A stretch of 64,000 nt of DNA from Thermoanaerobaculia bacterium (lineage in GTDB: Bacteria > Acidobacteriota > Thermoanaerobaculia > UBA5066): NCBI GenBank assembly GCA_963816185.1, contig CAWFJJ010000021.1, positions 53,269 to 117,268 on the forward strand, read 5' to 3'. The notes beneath the pieces are model-generated. The model did not search any database, had not been told where the DNA came from, and was given only the letters and a program-made list of their open reading frames with translations. Position numbers and translations under genes: made by a program. Of the stretch, positions 47,431-60,412 are shown in pieces (position 1 is the stretch's first letter; each line of letters begins with the position of its first letter).

Positions 47431-48452
47431 AGTGGTCGAAACCCGCGTCGGCAAGGGGGGCTCGCCGGCCGTCGCGCACGAGGCGGACGCCGGCGCCATC
47501 GTCGATCGTGCCGATTCGCCTCAGGGCGAAGCGGCCGGAGAGAGACTCGAGCACTGGCGAGCTTGCGCCGCGGCACCGTGAAGAGCAGCCCGTAATCTTC
47601 GCCCCCGTAGAGAGCCGTCGTCAGCGGGTCGAGGCCGAGCACGCCGCCGAGAGTGGAAAGAGCGGAGTCGGCCGGCAGAAGCGAGGCTTCGACGGTCGCG
47701 CCCACGTCCGAGGCGCGGCAGATCCGGTAGAGATCGCGCACGAGACCGTCCGAAACGTCGAGGGCCGCCGAGGCGAGCCCGCCGGCGGCGAGCGCGATGC
47801 CGAGCGCGAGCTGCGGGCGCGGATCGATCTGATGTCGGATGAGCCGCGCCTTCTCCGGCGCGCGCGGCGCCGGGACGCGGCGCCCCTTCGGATCGAGAAC
47901 CTCCTTCTCCGCGGAAAGACGATAGCCGGCCTCGAGCAGTTTCAGGCCTGCGGCGGCCGCGCCGAGCGTTCCCGAGACGTAGAGCGCGTCTCCCGGCTCT
48001 GCTCCGGAGCGCAGAAGCGGCTTCTCCGGCGCCTGCCCGAGCGCCGTCACGGTGACGAAGATCTTCTCGGACGCCGACAGGTCGCCGCCGACGACGGCCA
48101 GGCCGTGCTCGGCCGCCGCCTCGCGCATCCCCGAGACGAGCGCGTCGAGCCAGTCGGGTTGCGTCTTCTTCGGAAGCCCGAGCGCGAGGACGGCCCAGAG
48201 CGGGGTCGCCCCCATCGCGGCGAGGTCGGAGAGGTTCACGTTGATCGCCTTGCGCCCGAGCCGGCGGGGATCGGCGTCCCGGCGGAAGTCGTGCTCTTCG
48301 AGGAGCACGTCGGTCGTCACGGCGAGGCGCGAGGGCGCCGCGACGATGGCGGCGTCGTCGCCGATGCCCGTCTTCACGTCGCGCCGGCGCGTCGCGAATG
48401 CCGACGCCAGCCGTTGGACGATCGCGTCCTCGCGTGGCAGACCCGCCTTCAT
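47420..48452 (-). CDS. thiL: Thiamine-phosphate kinase; frameshift near 47540
   Basis: [35 protein letters not shown]; canonical C-terminus RIGTI...GFDHF lies in a shifted frame ending at TGA 47420. Confidence 0.92.
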
Positions 48453-50848
48453 GCCGTTTTCTTCCCATCCTCGGCAGGTCTCGCGAGCTTCAGCGCCCGG
48501 GCGGGTCCGAGCGCCGCCTTGAGGACGTCGTCCACGCGTGACGCGAAGACGAACTTCAGGTCGCGGCTCAGCTCTTTCGGGATCTCCGTCAGGTCGCGCG
48601 CGTTCGCCTTCGGGATCACGACGGTCCGAATCCCTGCGCGGCGCGCCGCGAGCACCTTCTCCTTCAGGCCGCCGATCGCGAGGACGTCTCCGCGCAGGGT
48701 GATCTCGCCGGTCATCGCGACGTCGCGGCGCACGGGCCGCCCCCCGAAGGCCGAGATCATGGCCGTGGCCATCGTGATGCCCGCGGAGGGCCCGTCCTTG
48801 GGGATCGCGCCCTCCGGGACGTGAACGTGGATGTCGTGCGTTTCGAAATAGTCGGCGGGCAGCCCGAGCGCGTCCGCCCGCGAGCGCGCGAAGGTGAGCG
48901 CGGCGTGCGCCGACTCCTTCATGACGTCCCCGAGCTGGCCCGTGAGCTGCAGGCGACCCTTGCCGCGCACGGCGCGCGCCTCGACGAGGAGGACGTCGCC
49001 GCCCACCGCCGTCCACGCGAGCCCGGTCGCCGTCCCGACCTGGTCGGTCCTGAGGAGCTCGTCGCGCTGAAACTTCGGGTTCCCGAGGAAGGCACGAACC
49101 TGCCTCGGCGTCACCGTGACGCTTTTCCTGCGGCCCGAGGCCCAGCGCACCGCCACCTTGCGGCAGCACGACCCGATCTCGCGCTCGAAGCTGCGCAGGC
49201 CCGCCTCGCGCGTGTGCCCTTCCACGATCGCCCGGAGCCCGGCGTCCGTGAACGTCACCGCCGACGCCGGAAGGCCGTTCTCCCGGAGCTGCTTCGGCAC
49301 GGTGTGCGCCTTCGCGATCGCGACCTTCTCCTCCAGCGTGTAGCCCGACAGCCGGATGACCTCCATGCGGTCGAGGAACGCGGGCTGGATCGTGTCGAGG
49401 ACGTTCGCGGTCGTGATGAAGAGAACCCTCGAGAGGTCGTAGTTCACGCCGAGGTAGTGGTCCCGGAACGTCTTGTTCTGCTCGGGGTCGAGGACCTCGA
49501 GGAGCGCGGACGACGGGTCGCCGCGGAAGTCGGCGCCGATCTTGTCGACCTCGTCGAGGATGTAAACGGGGTTCGACGTGCCGGCCTGCGAGATGCCCTG
49601 GACGATGCGGCCGGGCATCGCGCCTACGTACGTGCGGCGGTGGCCCCGGATCTCCGCTTCGTCACGCACGCCGCCCAGCGAGAGCCGCAGGAATTTCCGG
49701 TCGAGAGCGCGCGCGATCGATCGGCCGAGCGACGTCTTCCCGACGCCCGGCGGCCCCACGAAGCACAGGATCGGTCCCTTCGAGTCGGGCGCGAGCTTGC
49801 GCACGGCGAGGAACTCGATGATCCGCACCTTGATCTTCTCGAGGTCGTAGTGGTCTTCGTCGAGGATCTTCCGCGCCCGCGCGAGGTCGAGGTTGTCCTT
49901 GGAGACGTTCCCCCAGGGCAGGTTCGCGAGCCAGTCGAGGTACGTGCGCAGCATCGCGTTCTCGGCCGAGTCCGGGTTGCCGCGTTCGAGCCGCTTGACC
50001 TGCTTCTCGATCTCCTGGGCCGCCTCCTCGGGGATCTGCTTCTCCGTGATCTTCTTGCGGTAGGCCGCGATCTCCTCGGAGATGTCCTCGGTCTCGCCGA
50101 GCTCCTGCTGGATCGCCTTGAGCTGCTGCCTCAGGAAGTACTCGCGCTGGCTCTTGTCGATCTCTCCCTTGGCCGCGCCGGTGATCTCCTGCTGGACGGT
50201 CAGGACGCGGATTTCGCGGCGCAGGATCTCGAGCACCGTGCGCAGCCGGTCGACCGCGGGAATGGTCTCGAGGATCTTCTGGGACTCCTCGATCTTCAGA
50301 TCGAGGTTCGAGGCCGCGAGATCCGCGAGCCGCGCGGGCTCCTCGAGCCCCGCGGCCACGACCATGACCTCCGGCGAGATCGCCTTCCCGAGCGTGACCG
50401 TCTTCTCGAGCGCTTCCTTGACGCTTCGCGTGAGCGCCTCGGTCTCCTCGGAGGGAGGGGTCGGCTCCTCGGGCTCGGCGAGACGCGTCACCTTCGCGCG
50501 GAGCGCGGGCGTCTCGGCGAGGAACGAGTCGATCCTCACGCGCGCGAGTCCCTGCACGAGAAGGCGGATGCGTCCGTCCGGGAGCTTGAGCATCCGCATC
50601 ACGGCCGCCGCGGTCCCGATCGTGTAGAGGTCCTCCGGCTTCGGCTCTTCGACCGAGGAGTCCTTCTGCGCGACGAGAAGGAGGACTCGCTGCTCGGCGA
50701 GCGCCGCGTCGACCGCGGCGATGGACTTCTCGCGCGACACCGAAAGCGGCACGATGACGTACGGGAAGAGCACGACGTCCTTCAGCGGCAGCGCCGGGAG
50801 GATGTCGGGGATCGGGACCTTCTCGGTCGGGGGGGCTTCCGCGCTCAT
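48449..50848 (-). CDS. lon: Lon protease
   Basis: LON N-domain, [28 protein letters not shown]. Confidence 0.98.
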
Positions 50849-51245
50849 GCGCCTTTCTTTCCCTTCACGATCGGGATCGAGCGGCCGCTCTTCGCGGGAC
50901 GTTTCGGCACCTCGAGCACGAGCAGGCCGTCCGCGTAGGTCGCACGGGTGCGCTCGGGGTCGGGATCCTGCGGCAGCTCGAGGACGCGTTCGAAGGCGCC
51001 CGCCGCGCGCTCGACCCTCAGGAAGACGCCGCCGGCCCGGTCGGTGGCACGCCGCACCCCACGCAGCGTGAGCACGCGGCCCTGGACGTCCACGGAGATC
51101 TGGTCGGGATCGGCTCCCGGAATCTCGAATACGAGCCGCCAGCCCTGCGCGTCCTCGACGACGTCCACGGGAGCCTCGGGGGCGGGACGGTCGGCGGGCA
51201 GGGAGGCTTCCGTGCCGAAGACGAAAACGGGCCTCTCGCGGTCTT

Positions 51246-51249
<4 letters not shown>
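50845..51249 (-). CDS. Hsp20/alpha-crystallin small heat-shock protein
   Basis: PVDVVE, EIPG, ERAAGAFERVLELP, ATYADGLL; overlaps the lon start. Confidence 0.92.
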
Positions 51250-51722
<473 letters not shown>

Positions 51723-51754
51723 GGGACGGAGCCTAGCAGGAACGACGGGGCCGA

Positions 51755-54700
51755 TCAGGCCCCGCGGCTTCCGCGCAGCTCCTCGAGGGTGATCATCTGC
51801 TCGATCGTGCGCAGCGTCAGCTCCGCCTCGCCGAGCTCGCGGAGCCCCGACCAGTCGCGCCTGAGCTCGCGCGAGAGCGAATCGGGCAGCGTGCGGAGCC
51901 AGCCCTCGATCCTGAGGTCGACGAACTCGCGTTTCTCTTCGATCGTCAGCTCGCGCGCGAGCAGCAGGCGGCACGCCTCTTCGGCATCGATGACCGTCTG
52001 GAGCACGTTCCACCGGCTTCCGGGACGCTCCGCGCAGAGAGCGGAGAACGCGCTGCTGCTCGTCTCGCGGATCAGCTCCTCCTCGCGGGTCGTCACGCTC
52101 TCGTGCTCCTTCGGTTCGTCCCAGCTGTCGGAGTCTTCCGCGACGTAGCGCAGGTACAGCATGGCGAAGAGGCACGTCGGTTGGACGAGCTCCTCGCGCA
52201 CGCGGGCGTCGGCCCACAGCGCCGCGGCGGCGCGCAAGCACCTCTTCGCCGTCGTCTCGGCCAGGCGCTTCCCGAAGACGACCGCCACCGACTCGCGCAC
52301 GAAAAAGCTCAGCTCGCTCGCGATGATCTCCCGGTATCCCGGCACGTGCCGCTCCAGGAGCGTCGCGGCGCGCCGGTCGATCGCGGCGAGGTCGCTCACG
52401 ACGGCGGGGAGCCCGAGCGTCGTGCAGCCGAGGTTGTAATTGATCGCCCGCGGCAGCGTCACGCCCTCGGGCCACGCGTCGCGCAGATCGCGATTGCCCG
52501 GCAGCTCCCGGCCTCCGCCCCACTCCTCCGGGTACGTCGGGATCGAGCGGCCGTAGTTGACCGAGCCGGTCGCGCGGATCCGCACGCGCGTCTGCGGCAC
52601 GAGCCCGCTGAACGGCGCCAGGAGCGGGGCGATCCGGAGCAGCGTTTCGGTGTGCGCCTTGACGCCGGCCTCGAGGAGCCTGCACAGGGACTCCCGGTCC
52701 GCGGATCCGAGCGTCGGCGCCGCGCCCCTCGCCGCGACCGCGGCGCGGAACTTCGCCGCGAGGCGCTCGGCCTCGACCGGCGAGTCGGCCCGAATTCCCT
52801 GCATCGTCACGCCGTCCGCGCGCGCGAACTGCGCGATCACACCCTCGTGATCCGGCTCGAACCCGCCGCGGAAACCCGCCCGGCCCGCGCCGACGAGGAA
52901 CGTGACCTCTGGCGCCGGCTCTCCGATGCGCCTCGCGTGCGCGGCGAGACGGCCCTCGGCTTCGTCTCGGCCCGCAACCGTCAGCGCGTAGGCCGCGTCC
53001 GTCGCGATCTTGCCGCTCTGCTCGGCCGTATCGGACATCGCGACGAACACCCTCACGGTCGCTCCGGACCCGTCGAAGCGCGTCCGGAAGCCGCAAGGCC
53101 CCGGGAGGTCCGCGGCACCGCGGCTTCTTTCGAGAGCCTGGTAGTAGGCCTCGAGGAGGTCGGCAATGTGCGCGAGAGCGCCGACGTTCTCGACGAGAGG
53201 CACGAGGCGGACACGAGACACCTTTGCGGACAGCTCCGCGCGGCGGGCCTCGGGGATGCGCTCCGAGAGGAAAGAATCGATCCGCTCCGCCGGGCCGCTG
53301 AAGAGGCCCTCGACGGCCTGGAGATAGAGCGTCCCGATCTTGACGACGGCACCGAGCTCCGTCTGCGAGTTGACCTGCGGCACGGTCAGCTCGTAGATCG
53401 CGTTCTGGACGGGTTGAATCCCCAGCCGCTCGCAGGCGAGGAGGAACAGGAAGTTGGCCCGCGCGACGGCCGCGAGGATCTTGGAGATCTTCTCCTCGTC
53501 CTGCTCGAGCCACGGATTCGGCACGCGGAAGAGGAGGTGGCGGTCCTGGCCGGGGATGACGCCGTGCCGGAGCAGCGTGAGAACGACCTTCTCGGGGACC
53601 TCGAGCCAGTCGGGGCTGATCTGCCGACCCTCGTAATCGAGGAGGACCTCCGAGCACGGCCCGAGAAGGTCGGCGATCGTCTCCTCGAACTCCTGGCGCG
53701 CCTCGACGAGCGGGTTCCACTCGAGGTGGGTCAGAGCGCGTTCCGCGCGGTCCGGCGTCCCTTCCGGAGCGGAGCGCAGGGCGCGCTCGAGCTGCTCGGC
53801 GCGGTGCTTCGTGGAGTCCGGGTGCTTCGTTCCGGTCAGGCGGAGCGTCTCGAGGCGCGGATGCTCGAGGAAGCGGCGCCGCTCCGCCGCGAAGGCCGGA
53901 ACGTCGAGGGCGTCGAGAGCGTCGTACCCGGATTCCGTGCACACGCTGAACCAGACGCCCTCCTCGATCGATCGCGCCTCCCGGAGGGGCCGAGGCGCGC
54001 TCGAGCCCGCACGACCGCAGCTCTCGATTCGCGTCCGCACGCGGTCCATGAAGACCGCAAGCTCGCTCACGTCCTTCGAGCCGTAGGACAGGCGCTGCCA
54101 GGTTCCGTACCGGGCCGGGTCGCTGCCCGCGAACGCCGCGAACGGGATGCCTCCGACGCCGCCCGTAAGAAGGAAGTCGAAAGCATCCGCGGAGGTCTTC
54201 ACGACCGCCCGCTCGCTCACGCCGTTCCGGAGGCGTTTGAACGACTCGCCGACGAGCCCGGGAAACGCGAGCGGCGAGTAGAACGTGCCGCCGAAGTCGG
54301 TGCGCTCGACGCCGAGAGACGCGAGGGCGTCCGCGGCGTGAATCATGAAGTCGCGGCGTTCGCGCATGTACGGGGAGGGGCGCCGGAGCGCCGCGAGCGG
54401 GCTCTGGAGCGCGGCGAGGGCCCAGTCCTGCGCGAGCGTCGAGGGTGTCGCGACGAGCCACGCCGAGAGGTTCGCGACGATCTCCCGGGCCCGTACGCCG
54501 CCGGTCTTGATCTGGTCGGACAGAACCATCCAGCACGCGCGCGCGCCGGTCGACGCCCCGAACATGTCCATCTTCGACAGGCCGGACAGCGTGACGACCC
54601 AATCGCGCCACTCGGGGTCGGCGAACGCCGGGTTGACGAACGAGCCGACGTAGTCGAGGCGCTGGTAAACCGAGTCGTAGAGCACGTAGACGAAGTGCTT

Positions 54701-55372
54701 CGACGCGACACGCACGAGCTCCTCGACGAGCTCGCGGGGGTAGACGCGTCCGGTCGGATTGTGCGGGTTGTTGACGATGACCGAGGAGATCCCGCCGCCC
54801 TCGAGGAGGCGCTCGAACTCCGCCGGGTCGGGCAGGAAATCAGGCGACGTGGTCGGCAGCTCGACGACGTGCTTGCCGGCGCGCTCGATGAACCAGTCGT
54901 ATTCCCAGCTCGGGCGCGGGACGACGACGCCCGAGCCGTCGGCGCCGAGCACCTCGAGCACCGTCGCGAGGGCCGATCGCGTGCCGGGCGTGAAGATGAC
55001 TTCGTCGGGCAGGAAGCGGACGTCCGAGGAAGGGTAGTCGAGGAGGCCGTCGCGGTTGAAGAACTCGGCGATCTCGCTGCGCACGTCCATCCGGCCGACG
55101 GCGGGCCCGTAGCTGTGGACCGTGTTGCGCGTGATGCGCTGCGCCGCCCGGACGACCTCGGGGTGCGGTGCGAAGTCGGAGTTCTTGTAGTCGCCCTGCG
55201 TGAGATCGAGAGCGCCCTCCTGCTGCACGCGGCGCGAGTAGGCGCGCACGAGCGGCTCGGGGGTCGAGAGCGCGCGGGCGGCGAGTCTTTGGGGTTGGGG
55301 AGAGGGAACGATCTTTCGAGCGGTCTTCGCCGGGCTCGAGGCACTGATGGGCGTGGAGCTCATGGGCCGCAT
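51755..55372 (-). CDS. Fusion: class I/II PLP aminotransferase + archaeal-type phosphoenolpyruvate carboxylase (PpcA-like)
   Basis: N-half: NNPHNPTG, DSVY, SGLSK, RLSY. C-half: TKHPD, DYEG, RVPNP, PLVE, AMSD, GAG..FRG, LPRAI, matching PpcA motif order. Start ATG 55372 or 55363. Confidence 0.82.
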   Translation of the reverse strand: MRPMSSTPISASSPAKTARKIVPSPQPQRLAARALSTPEPLVRAYSRRVQQEGALDLTQGDYKNSDFAPHPEVVRAAQRITRNTVHSYGPAVGRMDVRSEIAEFFNRDGLLDYPSSDVRFLPDEVIFTPGTRSALATVLEVLGADGSGVVVPRPSWEYDWFIERAGKHVVELPTTSPDFLPDPAEFERLLEGGGISSVIVNNPHNPTGRVYPRELVEELVRVASKHFVYVLYDSVYQRLDYVGSFVNPAFADPEWRDWVVTLSGLSKMDMFGASTGARACWMVLSDQIKTGGVRAREIVANLSAWLVATPSTLAQDWALAALQSPLAALRRPSPYMRERRDFMIHAADALASLGVERTDFGGTFYSPLAFPGLVGESFKRLRNGVSERAVVKTSADAFDFLLTGGVGGIPFAAFAGSDPARYGTWQRLSYGSKDVSELAVFMDRVRTRIESCGRAGSSAPRPLREARSIEEGVWFSVCTESGYDALDALDVPAFAAERRRFLEHPRLETLRLTGTKHPDSTKHRAEQLERALRSAPEGTPDRAERALTHLEWNPLVEARQEFEETIADLLGPCSEVLLDYEGRQISPDWLEVPEKVVLTLLRHGVIPGQDRHLLFRVPNPWLEQDEEKISKILAAVARANFLFLLACERLGIQPVQNAIYELTVPQVNSQTELGAVVKIGTLYLQAVEGLFSGPAERIDSFLSERIPEARRAELSAKVSRVRLVPLVENVGALAHIADLLEAYYQALERSRGAADLPGPCGFRTRFDGSGATVRVFVAMSDTAEQSGKIATDAAYALTVAGRDEAEGRLAAHARRIGEPAPEVTFLVGAGRAGFRGGFEPDHEGVIAQFARADGVTMQGIRADSPVEAERLAAKFRAAVAARGAAPTLGSADRESLCRLLEAGVKAHTETLLRIAPLLAPFSGLVPQTRVRIRATGSVNYGRSIPTYPEEWGGGRELPGNRDLRDAWPEGVTLPRAINYNLGCTTLGLPAVVSDLAAIDRRAATLLERHVPGYREIIASELSFFVRESVAVVFGKRLAETTAKRCLRAAAALWADARVREELVQPTCLFAMLYLRYVAEDSDSWDEPKEHESVTTREEELIRETSSSAFSALCAERPGSRWNVLQTVIDAEEACRLLLARELTIEEKREFVDLRIEGWLRTLPDSLSRELRRDWSGLRELGEAELTLRTIEQMITLEELRGSRGA

Positions 55373-55379
55373 TCCGAGG

Positions 55380-55985
55380 TCAGGTGCGGCCGAACGGGAA
55401 CGGGATGACGTCGCCGTCACCGGGCGTCTCGGGCTGCTCCACGGCGGCGGGGCGGTCGGCGCGCGAGCCGCGCCGCACCTCGAGGATGAGATCGCAGAGC
55501 TCGCGCACGGCTCCGGCGCCGCCCGGCTTCGTGAGCTGAAGGGCGGCCGCCTCGCGGACGATTCCGATCGCGTCGGCCGGCGCCGCTCCGACGCCGGCGC
55601 GCCGGAGCATGCCGAGGTCCGGGAGGTCGTCTCCGACGGCCACGATCTCGATCGCATCGAGCCCCCAGCGTCTCGCGAGGAGGTCGAACGCGGCCACCTT
55701 GTCCCGCTCGCCCTGCAGGACGTGCTCCTCGGGGATCTTCAGCTCGGCGCAGCGGTGTGCCACGACCTTGGACGTGCGGCTCGAGACGACGCCGATCCGA
55801 TAGCCGAGATCGCGGAGAAGGACGAGGCCGAGGCCGTCCTTCACGTCGAACGTCTTCGTCTCGTGTCCGTTCTCGTCGAACGTCATCGAGCCGTCCGTCA
55901 GGACGCCGTCCACGTCGAGGACGAGCCCGCGAAGGCGGGCGAGACGACTCCTCAGGTCCTCGGGGACGATCGGGGCGGCCGGCAT
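55380..55985 (-). CDS. kdsC: KDO 8-phosphate phosphatase (HAD)
   Basis: DVDGVLTDG, FDVKDG, K, GDDLPD, GGAGAVRE. Confidence 0.93.
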   Translation of the reverse strand: MPAAPIVPEDLRSRLARLRGLVLDVDGVLTDGSMTFDENGHETKTFDVKDGLGLVLLRDLGYRIGVVSSRTSKVVAHRCAELKIPEEHVLQGERDKVAAFDLLARRWGLDAIEIVAVGDDLPDLGMLRRAGVGAAPADAIGIVREAAALQLTKPGGAGAVRELCDLILEVRRGSRADRPAAVEQPETPGDGDVIPFPFGRT

Positions 55986-56063: not shown

Positions 56064-57101
56064 ATGAGCCTCGCCGACGACGTGCCCGCGCCGGATCTCG
56101 GGAGGGGCGGCGTGCGCGGGCTTCTCGACGCCGCGCGTGCCCGCCGCTCCGCGGGGCATTCGCTCGTCCTCGCGGCCGTCGTCGGCACGGAGGGCTCCAC
56201 GTACGTCAAGCGCGGCGCGTTCGCGCTCTTCGGTGAGCGCGGGCTCCTCGCGGGCACGTTGAGCGGGGGCTGCCTCGAGCCCGAGGTCGAACGGCGCGCG
56301 CGGGACGTGCTCGAATCCGGCCGGGCGGCGCTCGTCCTCCTCGACACGACCGAACCCGGCGACCGCGTGTTCGGCTCCGGCCTCGGCTGCCGCGGGCGGC
56401 TGGACGTGCTCCTCCTCGCCGCGCCGCCGCCTTCGGGCGGGGCGCTCGGAACGCTCCTTCGCGCGAGTGACGGGAACAGCGGAGTCTCGCTGACCCTCTC
56501 TCTCGCGCCCGAGTCTCTCGGCGCGGGAGTCGCGTCGGGAGCTAGCTGGAAAGAGGCATTCGGTCCCGACGGTCGACGCATCGACGCGGCAGATGCGGGC
56601 GAGCCGTCCCCGCCGGTCGTGCGGCTCGACGTGCCGCCTCCCGTCACGCTGCTCCTCCTCGGCGCCGGCCCGGAGACGCCCGCCTTCCTCTCGATCGCGA
56701 GAACCCTCGGCTGGACGACGGTCGTCGTGGATCACCGCGCTCGCTGGAGCGAGCCGGCGCGGCGCGCGGGGGCGGACGAGGTTCATGCGGTCCGCCCGGC
56801 CGAGGCGCACGCGGCGCTTTCGGCACGGCGCTTCGACGCGATCCTTTTCGCGAGCCATTCCGTCGAGCTCGACCACGAGCACCTCGCGGCCTGGAAAGAC
56901 GCAGCGGCGGAATACGTGGCCCTCCTCGGGCCGGCGGCGCGCACGCGCGACCTCTTCGACGAGGCGGGCCTCGCGGACTCTCCGCTCGCGCAACGTCTCC
57001 ACGCTCCCGCGGGCGTGTCGCTCGGTACGTACGGCGCCGAGGCGGTCGCCCTCTCCATGGCCGCGGGACTCGAGCGCTTCCTCGGAGAACGAAGGCGATG
57101 A
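56064..57101 (+). CDS. xdhC: XdhC/CoxI-family molybdenum cofactor insertion chaperone
   Basis: GSTY, GTLSGGCLE, GLGCRG, LGAG, YVALLGP, LHAPAG. Confidence 0.9.
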   Translation: MSLADDVPAPDLGRGGVRGLLDAARARRSAGHSLVLAAVVGTEGSTYVKRGAFALFGERGLLAGTLSGGCLEPEVERRARDVLESGRAALVLLDTTEPGDRVFGSGLGCRGRLDVLLLAAPPPSGGALGTLLRASDGNSGVSLTLSLAPESLGAGVASGASWKEAFGPDGRRIDAADAGEPSPPVVRLDVPPPVTLLLLGAGPETPAFLSIARTLGWTTVVVDHRARWSEPARRAGADEVHAVRPAEAHAALSARRFDAILFASHSVELDHEHLAAWKDAAAEYVALLGPAARTRDLFDEAGLADSPLAQRLHAPAGVSLGTYGAEAVALSMAAGLERFLGERRR

Positions 57102-57682
57102 GACGAGTCGCACGGCACGGCATCGTGCTCCTCGCGGCCGGACGCGCGCGGCGACTGGGGATCTCCAAGCAGCTTCTCGAGACCGAGGGCGAGACGCTCG
57201 TGCGGCGCGCCGCGCGTCTCGCCCTCGCGACGTTGCCCGTCGATGCCGTCGTCGTGACCGGCGCCCACGCGAAGGCCGTCGAGGAAGCGGTTCGCGGCCT
57301 CGCCGTCCGCTGCGTCGGCGCGGAGGATTTCGACGAGGGCATGGGCCGATCTCTCGCGGCCGGTCTCCGGCATCTCGATCCCGTCTGCGCCGGCGCGCTC
57401 GTCGTCCTCTGCGATCAGCCCGCCCTCACCGCCGGGCACCTCGCGCGGCTCGTCGAGGCCTGGCAGGCGGCGCCGGCCTTCGCGGCGGCATCGGGCTACG
57501 CCGGGACCGTTGGTGTCCCGGCTGTCCTCCCGCGCGCGTGGTTTCCGCGATTGACGGCGGCTCACGGCGACCGGGGCGCGCGCGATCTCTTGAGAGAAGG
57601 CGCCGGAGAGGTCCGAGTCGTCCAGGATGAACGCCTGGCGCACGACGTGGATCGCCCGGAAGAAGCGGCCGGCCTTTCCTGA
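57098..57682 (+). CDS. mocA: Molybdenum cofactor cytidylyltransferase-like nucleotidyltransferase
   Basis: LAAG..RRLG..KQLL, GMGRSL, LCDQP, GDRGAR, DVD. Confidence 0.85.
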   Translation: MRRVARHGIVLLAAGRARRLGISKQLLETEGETLVRRAARLALATLPVDAVVVTGAHAKAVEEAVRGLAVRCVGAEDFDEGMGRSLAAGLRHLDPVCAGALVVLCDQPALTAGHLARLVEAWQAAPAFAAASGYAGTVGVPAVLPRAWFPRLTAAHGDRGARDLLREGAGEVRVVQDERLAHDVDRPEEAAGLS

Positions 57683-57787
57683 TTTCCCGTTCTTGATTTT
57701 CTTCGAAGACGAAGGTCGGTCCCGCTCTCCGTTCTGGACTGAGAATCGGTCTAGAGGCTAGACTCCCCGGCGCCGCGAGGTGAAGGC

Positions 57788-58243
57788 ATGAAGCTCACCG
57801 TCAACGGGAATGTCCACGACGTCGCGATCCCCGAAGACATGCCGCTTCTCTGGGCGATCCGGGACGCCCTCGGGCTGACCGGAACGAAGTTCGGATGCGG
57901 CATGGCGCAATGCGGTGCCTGCACGGTGCTCGTCGACGGCGAGCCGGTGCGCTCGTGCGTGAGGCCGGCCGCGTCCGTCGTGGGGAAGTCCATCACGACG
58001 ATCGAAGGCCTCAGCCTCGCCGGCGAGAATCCGGTGCAGAAGGCATGGGCCGAGCTCGACGTCGTGCAATGCGGCTTCTGCCAGTCCGGCCAGATCCTCG
58101 CCGCGGTCGCCCTCCTGAAGGCGAAGCCGCAGCCGACGGACGGCGACATCGATGCGGCCCTCAGCGGCAACATCTGCCGCTGCGGGACCTACCAGCGCAT
58201 TCGCGGCGCCGTGCACCAGGCCGCGGCGCTCATGAAGGGCTGA
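57788..58243 (+). CDS. 2Fe-2S small subunit of an isoquinoline/aldehyde oxidoreductase (IorA-like)
   Basis: [32 protein letters not shown]; GAGGTG SD. Confidence 0.95.
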
Positions 58244-58246
58244 GCC

Positions 58247-60412
58247 ATGAGAGCGCGATCGCCTCTCGCGACCCCCGTTTCCCGCCGGAGCTTCATCCGC
58301 ACGTCCGCCGCGCTCGGCGGAGGCCTCGTCGTGGGGTTCTACGTGCCGGGCGCCGGCAAGCGGCTCTTCGCCCAGGCGGCCGCCCCGAAGCCGCTGCCGA
58401 ACCCGAACTCGTTCCTCAGGATCGGGTCCGACGAGAGCGTGACCGTCCTCCTCGCGCACTCCGAGATGGGGCAGGGGATCTGGACGACTCTTCCGATGCT
58501 CATCAACGAGGAGCTCGGCGCCGACTGGAAGCGGATCCGCGTGGAGCACGCGCCCGCGGCGCCCGCGTACGCGCACGCGCTCTTCGGCATTCAGATGACG
58601 GGCGGATCCTCGACGACGTACTCGGAGATGGACCGTTACCGCCAGGCGGGAGCCGCCGCGCGCATGCTGCTCGTCGCGGCCGCCGCGAAGCGCTGGGGCG
58701 TCACCGAGGACTCGTGCCGGGTCGAGAACGGCTGGGTCACAAGCGGCGCGAACCGGCTGAGCTTCGGTTCGCTCGCGGAGGAAGCCGCCGCGCTGCCGGC
58801 ACCCACCTCGGTGACCCTGAAGGAACCGTCCAAATGGACCGTGATCGGCAAGGACACGCGCCGCCTCGACACGCCCGAGAAGATCACGGGCAAGGCGATT
58901 TTCGGGCTGGACGTGAAGCTGCCTGATCTCGCCACGGCCGTCGTCGCCCGCCCGCCCGTCTTCGGCGGGACGATGAAGGGCTTCGACGACAACAAGGCGA
59001 AGGCCGTGCCGGGCGTGCGGGCCGTTTTCGCGGTTCCCTCCGGCGTCGCGGTCGTGGCGGACGATTTCTGGTCCGCGAAGAAGGGCCGCGACGCTCTGAC
59101 GGTGGACTGGGAGAAGGGGCCGAACGCGGCGCTCGAGAGCGCGAAGCTGCGCGAGGAGTACCTCGCCCTCTCGAAGACTCCCGGAAAGACTGCGAAGGCC
59201 GAAGGCGACGTCGCGGCGGCGTTCGATCGCGCCGCGAAGAAAGTGACCGCGACGTACACCGTCCCATACCTCGCGCACGCGCCCATGGAGCCGCTGAACT
59301 GCACCGTCAAAAGAACGCCCGGCGGTTGCGAGATCTGGACGGGCACGCAGTTCCAGACGGTGGACCAGGGCGCCACGTCGAAGATCCTCGGCATCGAGCC
59401 GAAGAACGTCCTGATCCACACGACGTTCCTCGGGGGCGGCTTCGGCCGGCGCGCGAACCCGACGTCGGATTTCGTCGCGGAGGCTGTGCACGTCGCGAAG
59501 GGCTTCGACCGGCCCGTCAAGCTCGTCTGGACGCGCGACGACGACATCCGCGGCGGCTATTACCGCCCGATGGCCGTGCACCGGATCGAGGGCGCGCTCG
59601 ACGCGGAGGGAAAGCCGACGGCCTGGCGGCAGCGGATCGTCTCGACGTCCATCCTGGAGGGGACGCCGTTCGCGGCGATGATGGTGAAGAACGGGATCGA
59701 CGAGACGTCGGTGGAGGGCGCGGCCGACTCGCCTTACGTCCTCGCGATCCCGAGCCACCTCGTGGAGCTCCACACGCCGAAGAAGAGCGTGCCCGTCCTG
59801 TGGTGGCGGTCGGTCGGGCACTCACACACCGCGTTCGCCGTGGAGTCGTTTCTCGACGAGATGGCGCACGCGGCCGGGAAGGATCCCCTCGCGTTCCGGC
59901 TCGCGCTCCTCTCGAAGGCGCCGCGCCTCCACGCCGCGCTGAAGCTCGCGGCCGAGAAAGCCGGCTGGGGCAAGCCGCTTCCGAAGGGCCACGGTCTCGG
60001 CCTCGCGGTCCACGAATCGTTCCAGAGCATCGTCGCCCAGGTGGCGGAAGTGACCGTCGAGAAGGGGCGGATCCGCGTGCCGCGGGTCGTGTGCGTCGTC
60101 GACTGCGGGACGGCCGTGAACCCTCTCGCCGTGCGGGCCCAGATGGAATCCGCGATCGCGTTCGGCCTCGGCGCGGCACTGAAGAGTCGGCTCACACTCA
60201 AAGAGGGACGCGTCGTCGAGAGCAACTTCCACGATTACGAGGTCCTGAGGATGTCGGAGATGCCGCACGTCGAGGTGCACATCCTGAATAGCCACGAGAA
60301 GACCGGCGGCGTCGGCGAGCCCGGGACGCCTCCGATCGCACCCGCCGTCGCGAACGCGGTCTTCGCGGCGACGGGGAAGAGGCTGCGCGACCTGCCGCTG
60401 AGGCTCGCATGA
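58247..60412 (+). CDS. Molybdopterin-binding subunit (IorB-like) with Tat signal
   Basis: SRRSFI Tat motif, SEMGQG, TGGS, GGGFGRR, WWRSVG, GGVGEPG. Confidence 0.95.
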   Translation: MRARSPLATPVSRRSFIRTSAALGGGLVVGFYVPGAGKRLFAQAAAPKPLPNPNSFLRIGSDESVTVLLAHSEMGQGIWTTLPMLINEELGADWKRIRVEHAPAAPAYAHALFGIQMTGGSSTTYSEMDRYRQAGAAARMLLVAAAAKRWGVTEDSCRVENGWVTSGANRLSFGSLAEEAAALPAPTSVTLKEPSKWTVIGKDTRRLDTPEKITGKAIFGLDVKLPDLATAVVARPPVFGGTMKGFDDNKAKAVPGVRAVFAVPSGVAVVADDFWSAKKGRDALTVDWEKGPNAALESAKLREEYLALSKTPGKTAKAEGDVAAAFDRAAKKVTATYTVPYLAHAPMEPLNCTVKRTPGGCEIWTGTQFQTVDQGATSKILGIEPKNVLIHTTFLGGGFGRRANPTSDFVAEAVHVAKGFDRPVKLVWTRDDDIRGGYYRPMAVHRIEGALDAEGKPTAWRQRIVSTSILEGTPFAAMMVKNGIDETSVEGAADSPYVLAIPSHLVELHTPKKSVPVLWWRSVGHSHTAFAVESFLDEMAHAAGKDPLAFRLALLSKAPRLHAALKLAAEKAGWGKPLPKGHGLGLAVHESFQSIVAQVAEVTVEKGRIRVPRVVCVVDCGTAVNPLAVRAQMESAIAFGLGAALKSRLTLKEGRVVESNFHDYEVLRMSEMPHVEVHILNSHEKTGGVGEPGTPPIAPAVANAVFAATGKRLRDLPLRLA

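Follow-up and report, generated by a model that had tools for sequence, protein, structure and literature searches.

Phosphoenolpyruvate carboxylase (PEPC) and aspartate aminotransferase (AspAT) are well-known neighbors in central carbon metabolism, and C4 carbon fixation of the aspartate type starts with their two reactions. In aspartate-forming C4 photosynthesis, as well as in bacterial anaplerosis, the two reactions follow each other in this order on separate polypeptides, the PEPC being one of the PF00311 family. Two other described groups are relevant here, namely the archaeal-type PEPC (PepcA or atPEPC; Pfam family PEPcase_2, PF14010) and the AspAT of subgroup Ib, such as the enzyme of Thermus thermophilus. 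The main text of a 2020 review of the metabolic node linking phosphoenolpyruvate (PEP), pyruvate and oxaloacetate names four PEPC types and gives canonical atPEPC monomers a size of 55-60 kDa; a term search of this main text returned no occurrence of "fusion", and neither of its two passages containing "aminotransferase" deals with one (PMC8100219). A 2022 review of aminotransferase evolution, in the passages available from it, touches on PEPC in passing only (PMC9309667). Here we describe a gene from a stretch of 64,000 nucleotides (hereafter the window) of a Thermoanaerobaculia genome (assembly GCA_963816185.1), in which an aminotransferase (AT) domain and a divergent archaeal-type-like PEPC domain are joined in one chain of 1205 amino acids (aa). 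With moderate confidence, and on the basis of sequence comparisons and structure models, we consider that the best-supported reading is one of two consecutive reactions on a single chain, PEP to oxaloacetate to aspartate. No description of an AT-PEPC fusion was found in the full-text literature searched, a body of text that mostly leaves out subscription journals, which agrees with a first, sequence-only reading of this DNA that had not recognized the fusion as described. Automated pipelines label such proteins "phosphoenolpyruvate carboxylase", "aspartate aminotransferase" or "aminotransferase/phosphoenolpyruvate carboxylase". As far as can be told, the architecture is visible in databases but unstudied.

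The gene lies on the minus strand at positions 51755 to 55372 of the window, where translation gave a single stop-free frame (1205 aa and a stop codon; protein P0001), matching the uninterrupted open reading frame (ORF) reported earlier. The same frame is open farther upstream, to position 55657, but there it overlaps the preceding gene, which encodes a haloacid dehalogenase (HAD) phosphatase. The ATG at 55372 is 7 nt past the TGA of this HAD gene, but translation could equally well start at another ATG, that of codon 4 (M1 or M4), and no clear Shine-Dalgarno sequence was found. The Pfam search placed both families expected from the sequence-only reading above their cut-offs: Aminotran_1_2 (PF00155) at residues 55-351 (E-value 8.6e-33, 114.4 bits vs. 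a cut-off of 19.7) and PEPcase_2 at residues 554-1036 (E-value 1.3e-36, 126.6 bits vs. 25), the latter match spanning model positions 22 to 438 of 493. From its N-terminus, the protein begins with a variable tail of uncertain start (residues 1-29; 55286-55372, minus strand, as for all parts of the gene). Similarity of the related loci to the query mostly starts around residue 25-30, and the full-length structure model, whose first residue is residue 30, opens with a predicted local distance difference test score (pLDDT) below 50. A class-I (fold-type I) pyridoxal phosphate (PLP) aminotransferase domain follows (residues 30-450; 54023-55285), with the predicted Schiff-base lysine K267 encoded at 54572-54574. 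The interdomain linker (residues 451-512; 53837-54022) stands out by its low conservation, its substitution ratio (see below) and a pLDDT that falls to 61-65 at model residues 421-440, corresponding to protein residues 450-469. Conserved columns, fold and the PF14010 match identify the divergent archaeal-type PEPC catalytic core (residues 513-1036; 52265-53836), in which the histidine of TKHPD, H517, is encoded at 53822-53824, and an extended, all-helical C-terminal region (residues 1037-1205; 51758-52264) ends in ...RGSRGA, with R1200 and G1204. The full-length model reached a pLDDT of 86.5 and a predicted template modeling score (pTM) of 0.82, a value suggesting that the domains are placed relative to each other in a defined way.

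To find related proteins, we ran a word-indexed protein search with the C half, which returned 420 proteins among 8000 scored candidates. Among the 120 best homologues listed, 106 carry both Pfam domains and the other 14 are shorter pieces of 726 to 1070 aa. The same half was also compared exhaustively with 1.84 billion cluster representatives. Of the 131 hits, one was full-length (P0122, 1196 aa, 65% identical) and many were fragments. The next hits were "long" proteins with PEPcase_2 only (P0164, 905 aa; P0165, 930 aa; P0235, 1037 aa) at 28-30% identity, and the last ones were canonical PepcA of 500-545 aa at 24-35% identity. With the N half, every match above 45% identity resembled a partial or split copy of the fusion, and free-standing aminotransferases appeared only at 25-39% identity. 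A free-standing orthologue of either half was not seen in these protein-cluster searches. Two proteins, P0312 and P0323 (46 and 34% identical to the AT half), were considered as intermediate forms and set aside, as their Pfam matches are fragmentary and the sequences probably error-laden. Both domains also occur together in a 98-member cluster of the ESM Atlas. This atlas further contains clusters of 1610-aa and 1871-aa proteins named "PLP-dependent aminotransferase family", with PF00155 as sole annotation, which we take to be other giant aminotransferase fusions.

At the genome level, scanning a single genome from each of 185,579 species yielded 55 related loci, all of them from metagenome-assembled genomes (MAGs) according to the record titles. 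The AT match adjoins the PEPC match in 54 of these loci, the exception (L064) starting inside the PEPC part. A continuous stop-free frame runs from the AT match to the stop codon in 41 of the 55, and a frame of at least 1150 aa is intact in 42 loci, which end in RGSxGA (40 loci) or RGGxGA (2 loci). The frame is broken in seven loci (L022, L042, L045, L063, L066, L067, and L068). Most broken-frame copies, with frameshifts or premature stops, trace to one long-read MAG series, and these copies are probably the product of sequencing indels rather than pseudogenes. Contigs from four public sequencing runs were aligned to the gene. The domain junction is spanned without gaps by one DNA contig, which is identical to the window, and by two contigs of close relatives that stem from metatranscriptome libraries of soil; the two RNA-library runs covered 30 of 30 gene bins at 88-99% identity. 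The sequencing runs listed as sharing words with the gene are mostly soil metagenomes, with shares (best 0.41, most below 0.2) too low to assign a habitat beyond that of the four aligned runs. No stop codon between the domains was found in the 41 loci or in the junction-spanning contigs, and the earlier claim of a genuine fusion therefore held.

In the 42 fused sequences compared, no variation occurs at 388 of 1176 positions. The invariant fraction was highest in the AT domain (49%, 207/421), followed by the PEPC core (27%), the C-terminal region (18%) and the linker (13%, 8/62). Ratios of nonsynonymous to synonymous substitutions (dN/dS; pairwise Nei-Gojobori, window gene vs. six relatives) were 0.07-0.13 in the AT domain, 0.14-0.19 in the PEPC domain and 0.06-0.17 in the C-terminal region, against 0.47-0.68 in the linker. 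The AT and PEPC halves are thus under purifying selection; given the low ratios in both, both domains are maintained, and the linker behaves as a linker. Judged from these sequences, the fusion is obligate and conserved (65-96% identity). On the same grounds we regard it as a real, conserved and uncharacterized domain fusion, a member of both Pfam families that fails both equivalog-level tests.

The C half is predicted to fold as a PEPC, as the sequence-only reading had expected from its motifs. Its AlphaFold2 model, built with a 52-sequence alignment, had a pLDDT of 90.7 and a pTM of 0.90. The best PDB folds found by Foldseek were seven chains of 3odm, the archaeal-type PEPC of Clostridium perfringens (E-values 3e-21 to 2e-19; target-normalized template modeling score, TMt, 0.72-0.78), and the remaining matches listed were all bacterial and plant PEPCs (E-value around 1e-7). 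The best PDB sequence match was also 3odm (E-value 3.6e-11). We aligned 24 canonical PepcA, three long forms and 44 fused sequences and found that 42 of 57 near-invariant canonical columns are identical and invariant in the fused ones. The motifs listed in the sequence-only reading (TKHPD, DYEG, RVPNP, VPLVE, AMSD, GAGRAGFRGG, NYGRS, LPRAI, and a terminal R...G) were found in the translation, and they occupy the canonical columns. Besides the fold and a score that passes Pfam gathering, the domain shares with the archaeal-type enzymes the TxHPD histidine (H517), the acidic Glu/Asp pair (E728/D781), R616, the FRG-loop arginine (R835), PxxRxR along with R929, R931 and R942, PRAI (R975) and the terminal R..G (R1200 and G1204). 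The catalytic roles of individual residues are known for the PEPC family. Canonical enzymes carry TQHPD within their first 2-21 residues, whereas the fusion has its counterpart at residue 515, behind a whole aminotransferase, and neither its 1205-aa chain nor its PEPC part alone (about 690 aa) has the size of a canonical monomer. From sequence and model, the PEPC domain looks competent.

The N half is a complete fold-type I aminotransferase. The motifs from which this had been concluded (NPHNPTG, SGLSK, and RLSY) are present in the translation, and Pfam and fold comparisons agree. The best PDB sequence match is the T. thermophilus AspAT 1bjw (E-value 6e-28, about 26% identity), and the best fold is the Thermus AspAT 1gck (E-value 3.1e-21, TMt 0.86; Foldseek with the full-length model), with aspartate/prephenate aminotransferases also among the best folds (TMt 0.82-0.87). 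Residues that bind PLP or the alpha-carboxylate in such enzymes include the Schiff-base lysine, the phosphate-binding arginine, a C-terminal arginine and a tyrosine contributed by the partner subunit. Residues Y88, W156, N205, D233, Y236, K267, and R278 align with Y64, W125, N175, D203, Y206, K234, and R242 of Thermus AspAT, and neither they nor R132 and the C-terminal R427 vary among the 42 fused sequences. The counterpart of R132 in the 1bjw sequence is Lys101, which we take to be the residue numbered Lys109 in the literature, where it binds the substrate's distal carboxylate. A Lys or Arg occupies this position in three of eight comparison aminotransferases (L069, L079, and P0327), of which L069 and L079 are AspAT-like. 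By alignment, an Arg in place of the Lys would be compatible with distal-carboxylate binding. Common to the fused domain and the subgroup-Ib enzymes (Thermus AspAT 1bjw/1gck; bacterial and plant aspartate/prephenate aminotransferases 6f77 and 5wmh) are the fold, the PLP-site Tyr, Trp, Asn, Asp, Tyr, Lys, and two Arg, as well as a basic residue at the distal-carboxylate Lys position. On sequence and model evidence, the AT half is closest to the subgroup-Ib aspartate aminotransferases, and it looks competent and dicarboxylate-oriented.

As to the distribution of the fusion, a survey of the architecture across genomes amounts to the 55-locus set, which is patchy. By record title, the loci belong mainly to Acidobacteriota (Thermoanaerobaculia, Holophagales, and Vicinamibacteria), whereas some carry the label Eisenbacteria or Myxococcota, and Chloroflexota or Proteobacteria is the label of a few. 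In an even set of 401 genomes of the phylum, six genomes carry the fused type and two the canonical PepcA; the six comprise all four searched genomes of the genus, including that of the window, and one genome each from two other families. Eight loci (L018, L021, L029, L030, L045, L057, L062, and L066) are 75-84% identical to the window fusion and nest among Acidobacteriota in the tree, while their MAGs are labelled Gammaproteobacteria, Proteobacteria, Chloroflexia or Chloroflexota. These eight fusion genes reflect either horizontal transfer or mislabelled bins, and the shallow crown across labels in the tree suggests horizontal spread, slow evolution or mislabelled bins. No neighbor cluster occurred in more than 8 of the 55 loci, and the kdsC/nrdR/hsp20/lon context found in the window recurs only in relatives in which both the AT and the PEPC half share 91% identity or more with those of the window. 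The gene thus forms a unit of its own, without recurring neighbors and with a context that only its nearest relatives keep. What stands of the sequence-only reading is the fused class-I aminotransferase and archaeal-type-like PEPC, with their folds and residues; its placement of the gene in the core genome is not supported.

In the proposed reaction sequence, the divergent archaeal-type PEPC domain would convert PEP and bicarbonate into oxaloacetate and phosphate, and the AspAT-like domain would transaminate the oxaloacetate to aspartate, most likely with glutamate as amino donor. Both activities, the shared intermediate and the donor are inferred from the domain comparisons above. The order of reactions would be that of the C4 and anaplerotic pair, with the difference that these consist of separate polypeptides with a PF00311 PEPC and the fusion of one chain with an archaeal-type-like PEPC. 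Being irreversible, the carboxylation would draw along a transamination that is itself near equilibrium, and the unstable oxaloacetate would be consumed beside the site where it is made. True channelling, as opposed to mere proximity, is doubtful. Aminotransferases are dimeric and archaeal-type PEPCs tetrameric, and by analogy a tetramer with two aminotransferase dimers would be expected. A more ambitious version combines a one-chain, bicarbonate-fixing "aspartate synthase" handing oxaloacetate over directly, in a fixed assembly of AT dimers and a PEPC tetramer from which little free oxaloacetate would escape, with horizontal spread as a self-contained module among uncultured soil bacteria (Acidobacteriota, Myxococcota, and Eisenbacteria) and replacement of the classical PEPC; taken jointly, we find this unlikely. 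If the halves work in series, the protein would offer a ready-made test case for the channelling of a labile metabolite and a compact CO2-to-amino-acid module for metabolic engineering, and it would correct metabolic reconstructions of abundant uncultured soil Acidobacteriota.

Several observations weigh against two consecutive reactions. In the AT half, every equivalog cut-off of NCBIfam was missed widely and the top hits were mixed (GntC, 108.9 bits vs. 415; alanine aminotransferase, AlaAT, 99.1 bits; generic aminotransferase, 97.9 bits), the AspAT models scoring 87.4 bits vs. 550 (asp_aminotase_Arch) and 68.1 vs. 617 (PRK06107). An invariant GDYKNSDF loop stands where typical enzymes have G-x-P-x-F. 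The domain further departs from subgroup-Ib AspAT by its low identity, the Arg for Lys, a longer stretch past the PLP lysine, an enlarged small domain and the lack of a clear free-standing form among the proteins seen. The missed cut-offs, the mixed hits and the loop make an aspartate specificity of the aminotransferase tentative. In the PEPC half, the NCBIfam equivalog TIGR02751 (PEPCase_arch) was failed with 120.2 bits vs. a cut-off of 146.05, and fused sequences score 110-127 bits on PF14010 vs. 360-540 for canonical enzymes. Of the 57 columns that canonical enzymes keep nearly invariant, fifteen differ, and in at least six of these all 44 fused sequences have the same new residue. The fixed changes include Q516K beside the TxHPD histidine, K583R (EGK to EGR), P833G in the Gly-rich loop, Y907H, and P990A, and the Arg of ARSD is a Met both in the window protein and in the family consensus VFVAMSD. 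The earlier observation of Q to K, R to M and an altered Gly-rich loop thus extends to the family, with K516 and G833 fixed in 44 of 44 sequences. In a quick maximum-likelihood tree of 52 rows, to which long-branch warnings apply, the fused and long sequences split from all canonical PepcA with full support (Shimodaira-Hasegawa-like approximate likelihood ratio test, SH-aLRT, 100), and the fused sequences formed one clade of their own (SH-aLRT 100), whose stem measures 2.57 substitutions per site and whose crown is very shallow. By sequence, the PEPC half is clearly not a standard PepcA.

The genomic setting adds points on the same side. The genome of the window (5.09 Mb, 30 contigs, 94.9% complete) contains, in addition to the fusion, a GTP-dependent PEP carboxykinase (GTP-PEPCK), a pyruvate carboxylase (PYC)/OadA-type carboxyltransferase (L002; G000:C30:58513-59118, PYC_OADA, 566 aa) and twelve other strong class-I/II PLP enzymes, one of them AspAT-like. 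With these AspAT-like, GTP-PEPCK and PYC/OadA-type genes present, the fusion is therefore not obviously required for aspartate formation or anaplerosis. The search for other pyc and aspC genes that the sequence-only reading had called for thus gave an AspAT-like gene and the carboxyltransferase L002, which does not reach the cut-off of any pyruvate carboxylase, OadA or transcarboxylase 5S model. The corresponding search for ppc genes returned the fusion alone: it is the sole PF14010 match, and no PF00311 PEPC was found in this 94.9%-complete genome. The five other fusion-bearing genomes searched likewise yielded no second PF14010 gene and no PF00311. Across the phylum set, PF00311 occurs in 95 of 401 genomes, a count that includes the unpublished genome G049, and in none of the six fusion genomes. 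Against a background of 24%, this absence is not significant (0.76^6, about 0.19) and the genomes are kin; the trend fits a replacement of the classical PEPC without reaching significance. Finally, RNA-library contigs over the gene are no proof of its transcription.

Four alternatives were weighed against the consecutive reactions. In the one that survives best, which we consider possible although improbable, both domains are active but uncoupled through oxaloacetate: the AT would use another keto acid, for instance pyruvate, prephenate or another 2-oxo acid, and the fusion would serve co-regulation or stoichiometric co-expression. PEPC-type enzymes release pyruvate from PEP as a side reaction. 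The mixed NCBIfam hits, all far under their cut-offs, and the atypical GDYKNSDF insertion in the substrate loop fit such a protein, as do the presence of an AspAT-like gene elsewhere in the genome and fold neighbors that include prephenate, kynurenine, alanine, and methionine aminotransferases (TMt 0.77-0.87). However, the best sequence and structure matches of the AT half are aspartate aminotransferases, and its R132 sits at the distal-carboxylate Lys position of Thermus AspAT, where two of the three comparison enzymes with a Lys or Arg are AspAT-like. Consecutive reactions also remain the simplest account of an obligate fusion that is 65-96% identical across its members and for which the searches showed no free-standing orthologue.

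Another possibility is that the AT-like domain acts as a PLP-dependent sensor, which would bind an amino acid (aspartate or glutamate) and regulate the attached PEPC, supplying an effector control otherwise missing from the archaeal-type PEPC family. Aminotransferase-fold domains that retain the PLP lysine are effector-binding modules in MocR/GabR regulators, and the pTM of the full-length model suggests that the two domains pack together. Furthermore, the 2020 review describes an inhibition by aspartate that is competitive with PEP (PMC8100219). The MocR-type model YczR matches the AT half weakly (56.3 bits vs. a cut-off of 487). Membership of the MocR/GabR family itself was rejected, since the protein lacks a winged-helix domain and YczR is far below its cut-off, a result that concerns membership and leaves sensor-like action to be judged on its own. 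No helix-turn-helix (HTH) or GntR family appeared among the Pfam hits of the fusion protein down to an E-value of 1, and the scan showed no DNA-binding domain or other regulator hallmark. The full catalytic set, including Y88, N205, R427, and R132, shows no change in any of the 42 sequences. No other part of the protein is conserved as strongly as the AT half, with its low dN/dS given above, and the nearest relatives of this half by sequence and fold are working aminotransferases. All of this speaks against the sensor, which we hold to be quite improbable; if it existed, it would be the first effector-controlled archaeal-type PEPC.

In the third alternative, which we judge no more probable than the sensor, the PEPC-like domain has diverged to another reaction of PEP, a related enol-phosphate or a keto acid, and the amino acid produced would be other than aspartate. 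The long stem outside canonical PepcA, the score under the TIGR02751 cut-off and the changed columns, several of them uniform, would be expected of a changed enzyme. The same holds for its added length: TKHPD to PRAI measures 459 residues vs. about 378 in canonical enzymes (about 80 extra), and PRAI to the C-terminus 232 residues vs. a canonical median of 134 (about 100 extra), which bears out the C-terminal insert noted in the sequence-only reading. However, the family histidine, the acidic Glu/Asp pair and the arginines are retained and invariant in the fused clade, every Foldseek match listed after 3odm is a PEPC, and the fusion is the only PEPC-family gene in six genomes without PF00311. 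To our knowledge, no PEPC-family enzyme with another chemistry has been described. The last alternative, an artefact in the form of an assembly chimera or of two genes merged by a sequencing error at a stop codon, is negligible: it could draw on the seven broken frames and on several short free-standing AT or PEPC gene calls in protein databases, but most of these short proteins lie on short contigs or bear a "partial" label, the same stop-free frame crosses the junction in 41 related loci, the window-identical DNA contig and two RNA-library contigs cross it gap-free, and a linker dN/dS below 1 indicates that it evolves as coding sequence.

The long PEPcase_2 proteins are the nearest unfused relatives of the PEPC half in the quick tree, where P0164 and P0165 form the sister group of the fused clade (SH-aLRT 88). 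They share with it TKHPD, DYEGR and the terminal RGxxG (RGWVG), and they differ by the absence of an aminotransferase domain, by an identity of 28-30% and by other insertions and an N-terminal extension. P0164 and P0165 are rich in Lys, Asn and Ile, hinting at low-GC hosts, and these two as well as P0235 have large insertions and an N-terminal extension without Pfam match. From their sequences, the fused clade and the long forms together look like a deep lineage within PEPcase_2 that has gone unstudied and in which the altered residues could confer a different regulation.

Among the free-standing aminotransferases of the window genome, L079 (G000:C30:424720-425841) is 25% identical to the AT half. 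Common to both are several unusual features, namely a GD[FY] loop lengthened by three residues, the deletion of one residue after PSW, an Arg at the position equivalent to Lys109 and an xRLSxG tail. By these sequence features, L079 may represent the free-standing lineage from which the fused AT domain came. We also looked for aminotransferases beside unfused PEPC genes, and none was found within 1.5-kb flanks of the two canonical PepcA genes of the phylum, which is a tiny sample.

The fusion gene belongs to a tight same-strand run at 48449-55985 (minus strand), composed of a KdsC-like HAD phosphatase gene, the fusion gene, nrdR, hsp20 and lon, with small overlaps between nrdR and hsp20 (51246-51249) and between hsp20 and lon (50845-50848). 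The upstream neighbor (55380-55985, minus strand) is a KdsC-subfamily HAD phosphatase (TIGR01670, 127 bits vs. a cut-off of 107), and NrdR (51246-51728, minus strand) lies downstream, followed by Hsp20 and Lon. The order given in the sequence-only reading, with kdsC 7 nt upstream and nrdR-hsp20-lon downstream, agrees with this annotation. A functional tie to 3-deoxy-D-manno-octulosonate (KDO) synthesis or to the HAD phosphatase was considered and dropped, since the context is limited to the nearest relatives. On the other strand, a divergent cluster at 56064-60412 (plus strand) encodes an XdhC-family maturation factor, a MobA-like nucleoside triphosphate (NTP) transferase and 2Fe-2S and molybdopterin-binding subunits, which from their sequences we assign to an aldehyde-oxidase/xanthine-dehydrogenase-type molybdoenzyme with its cofactor-insertion genes.

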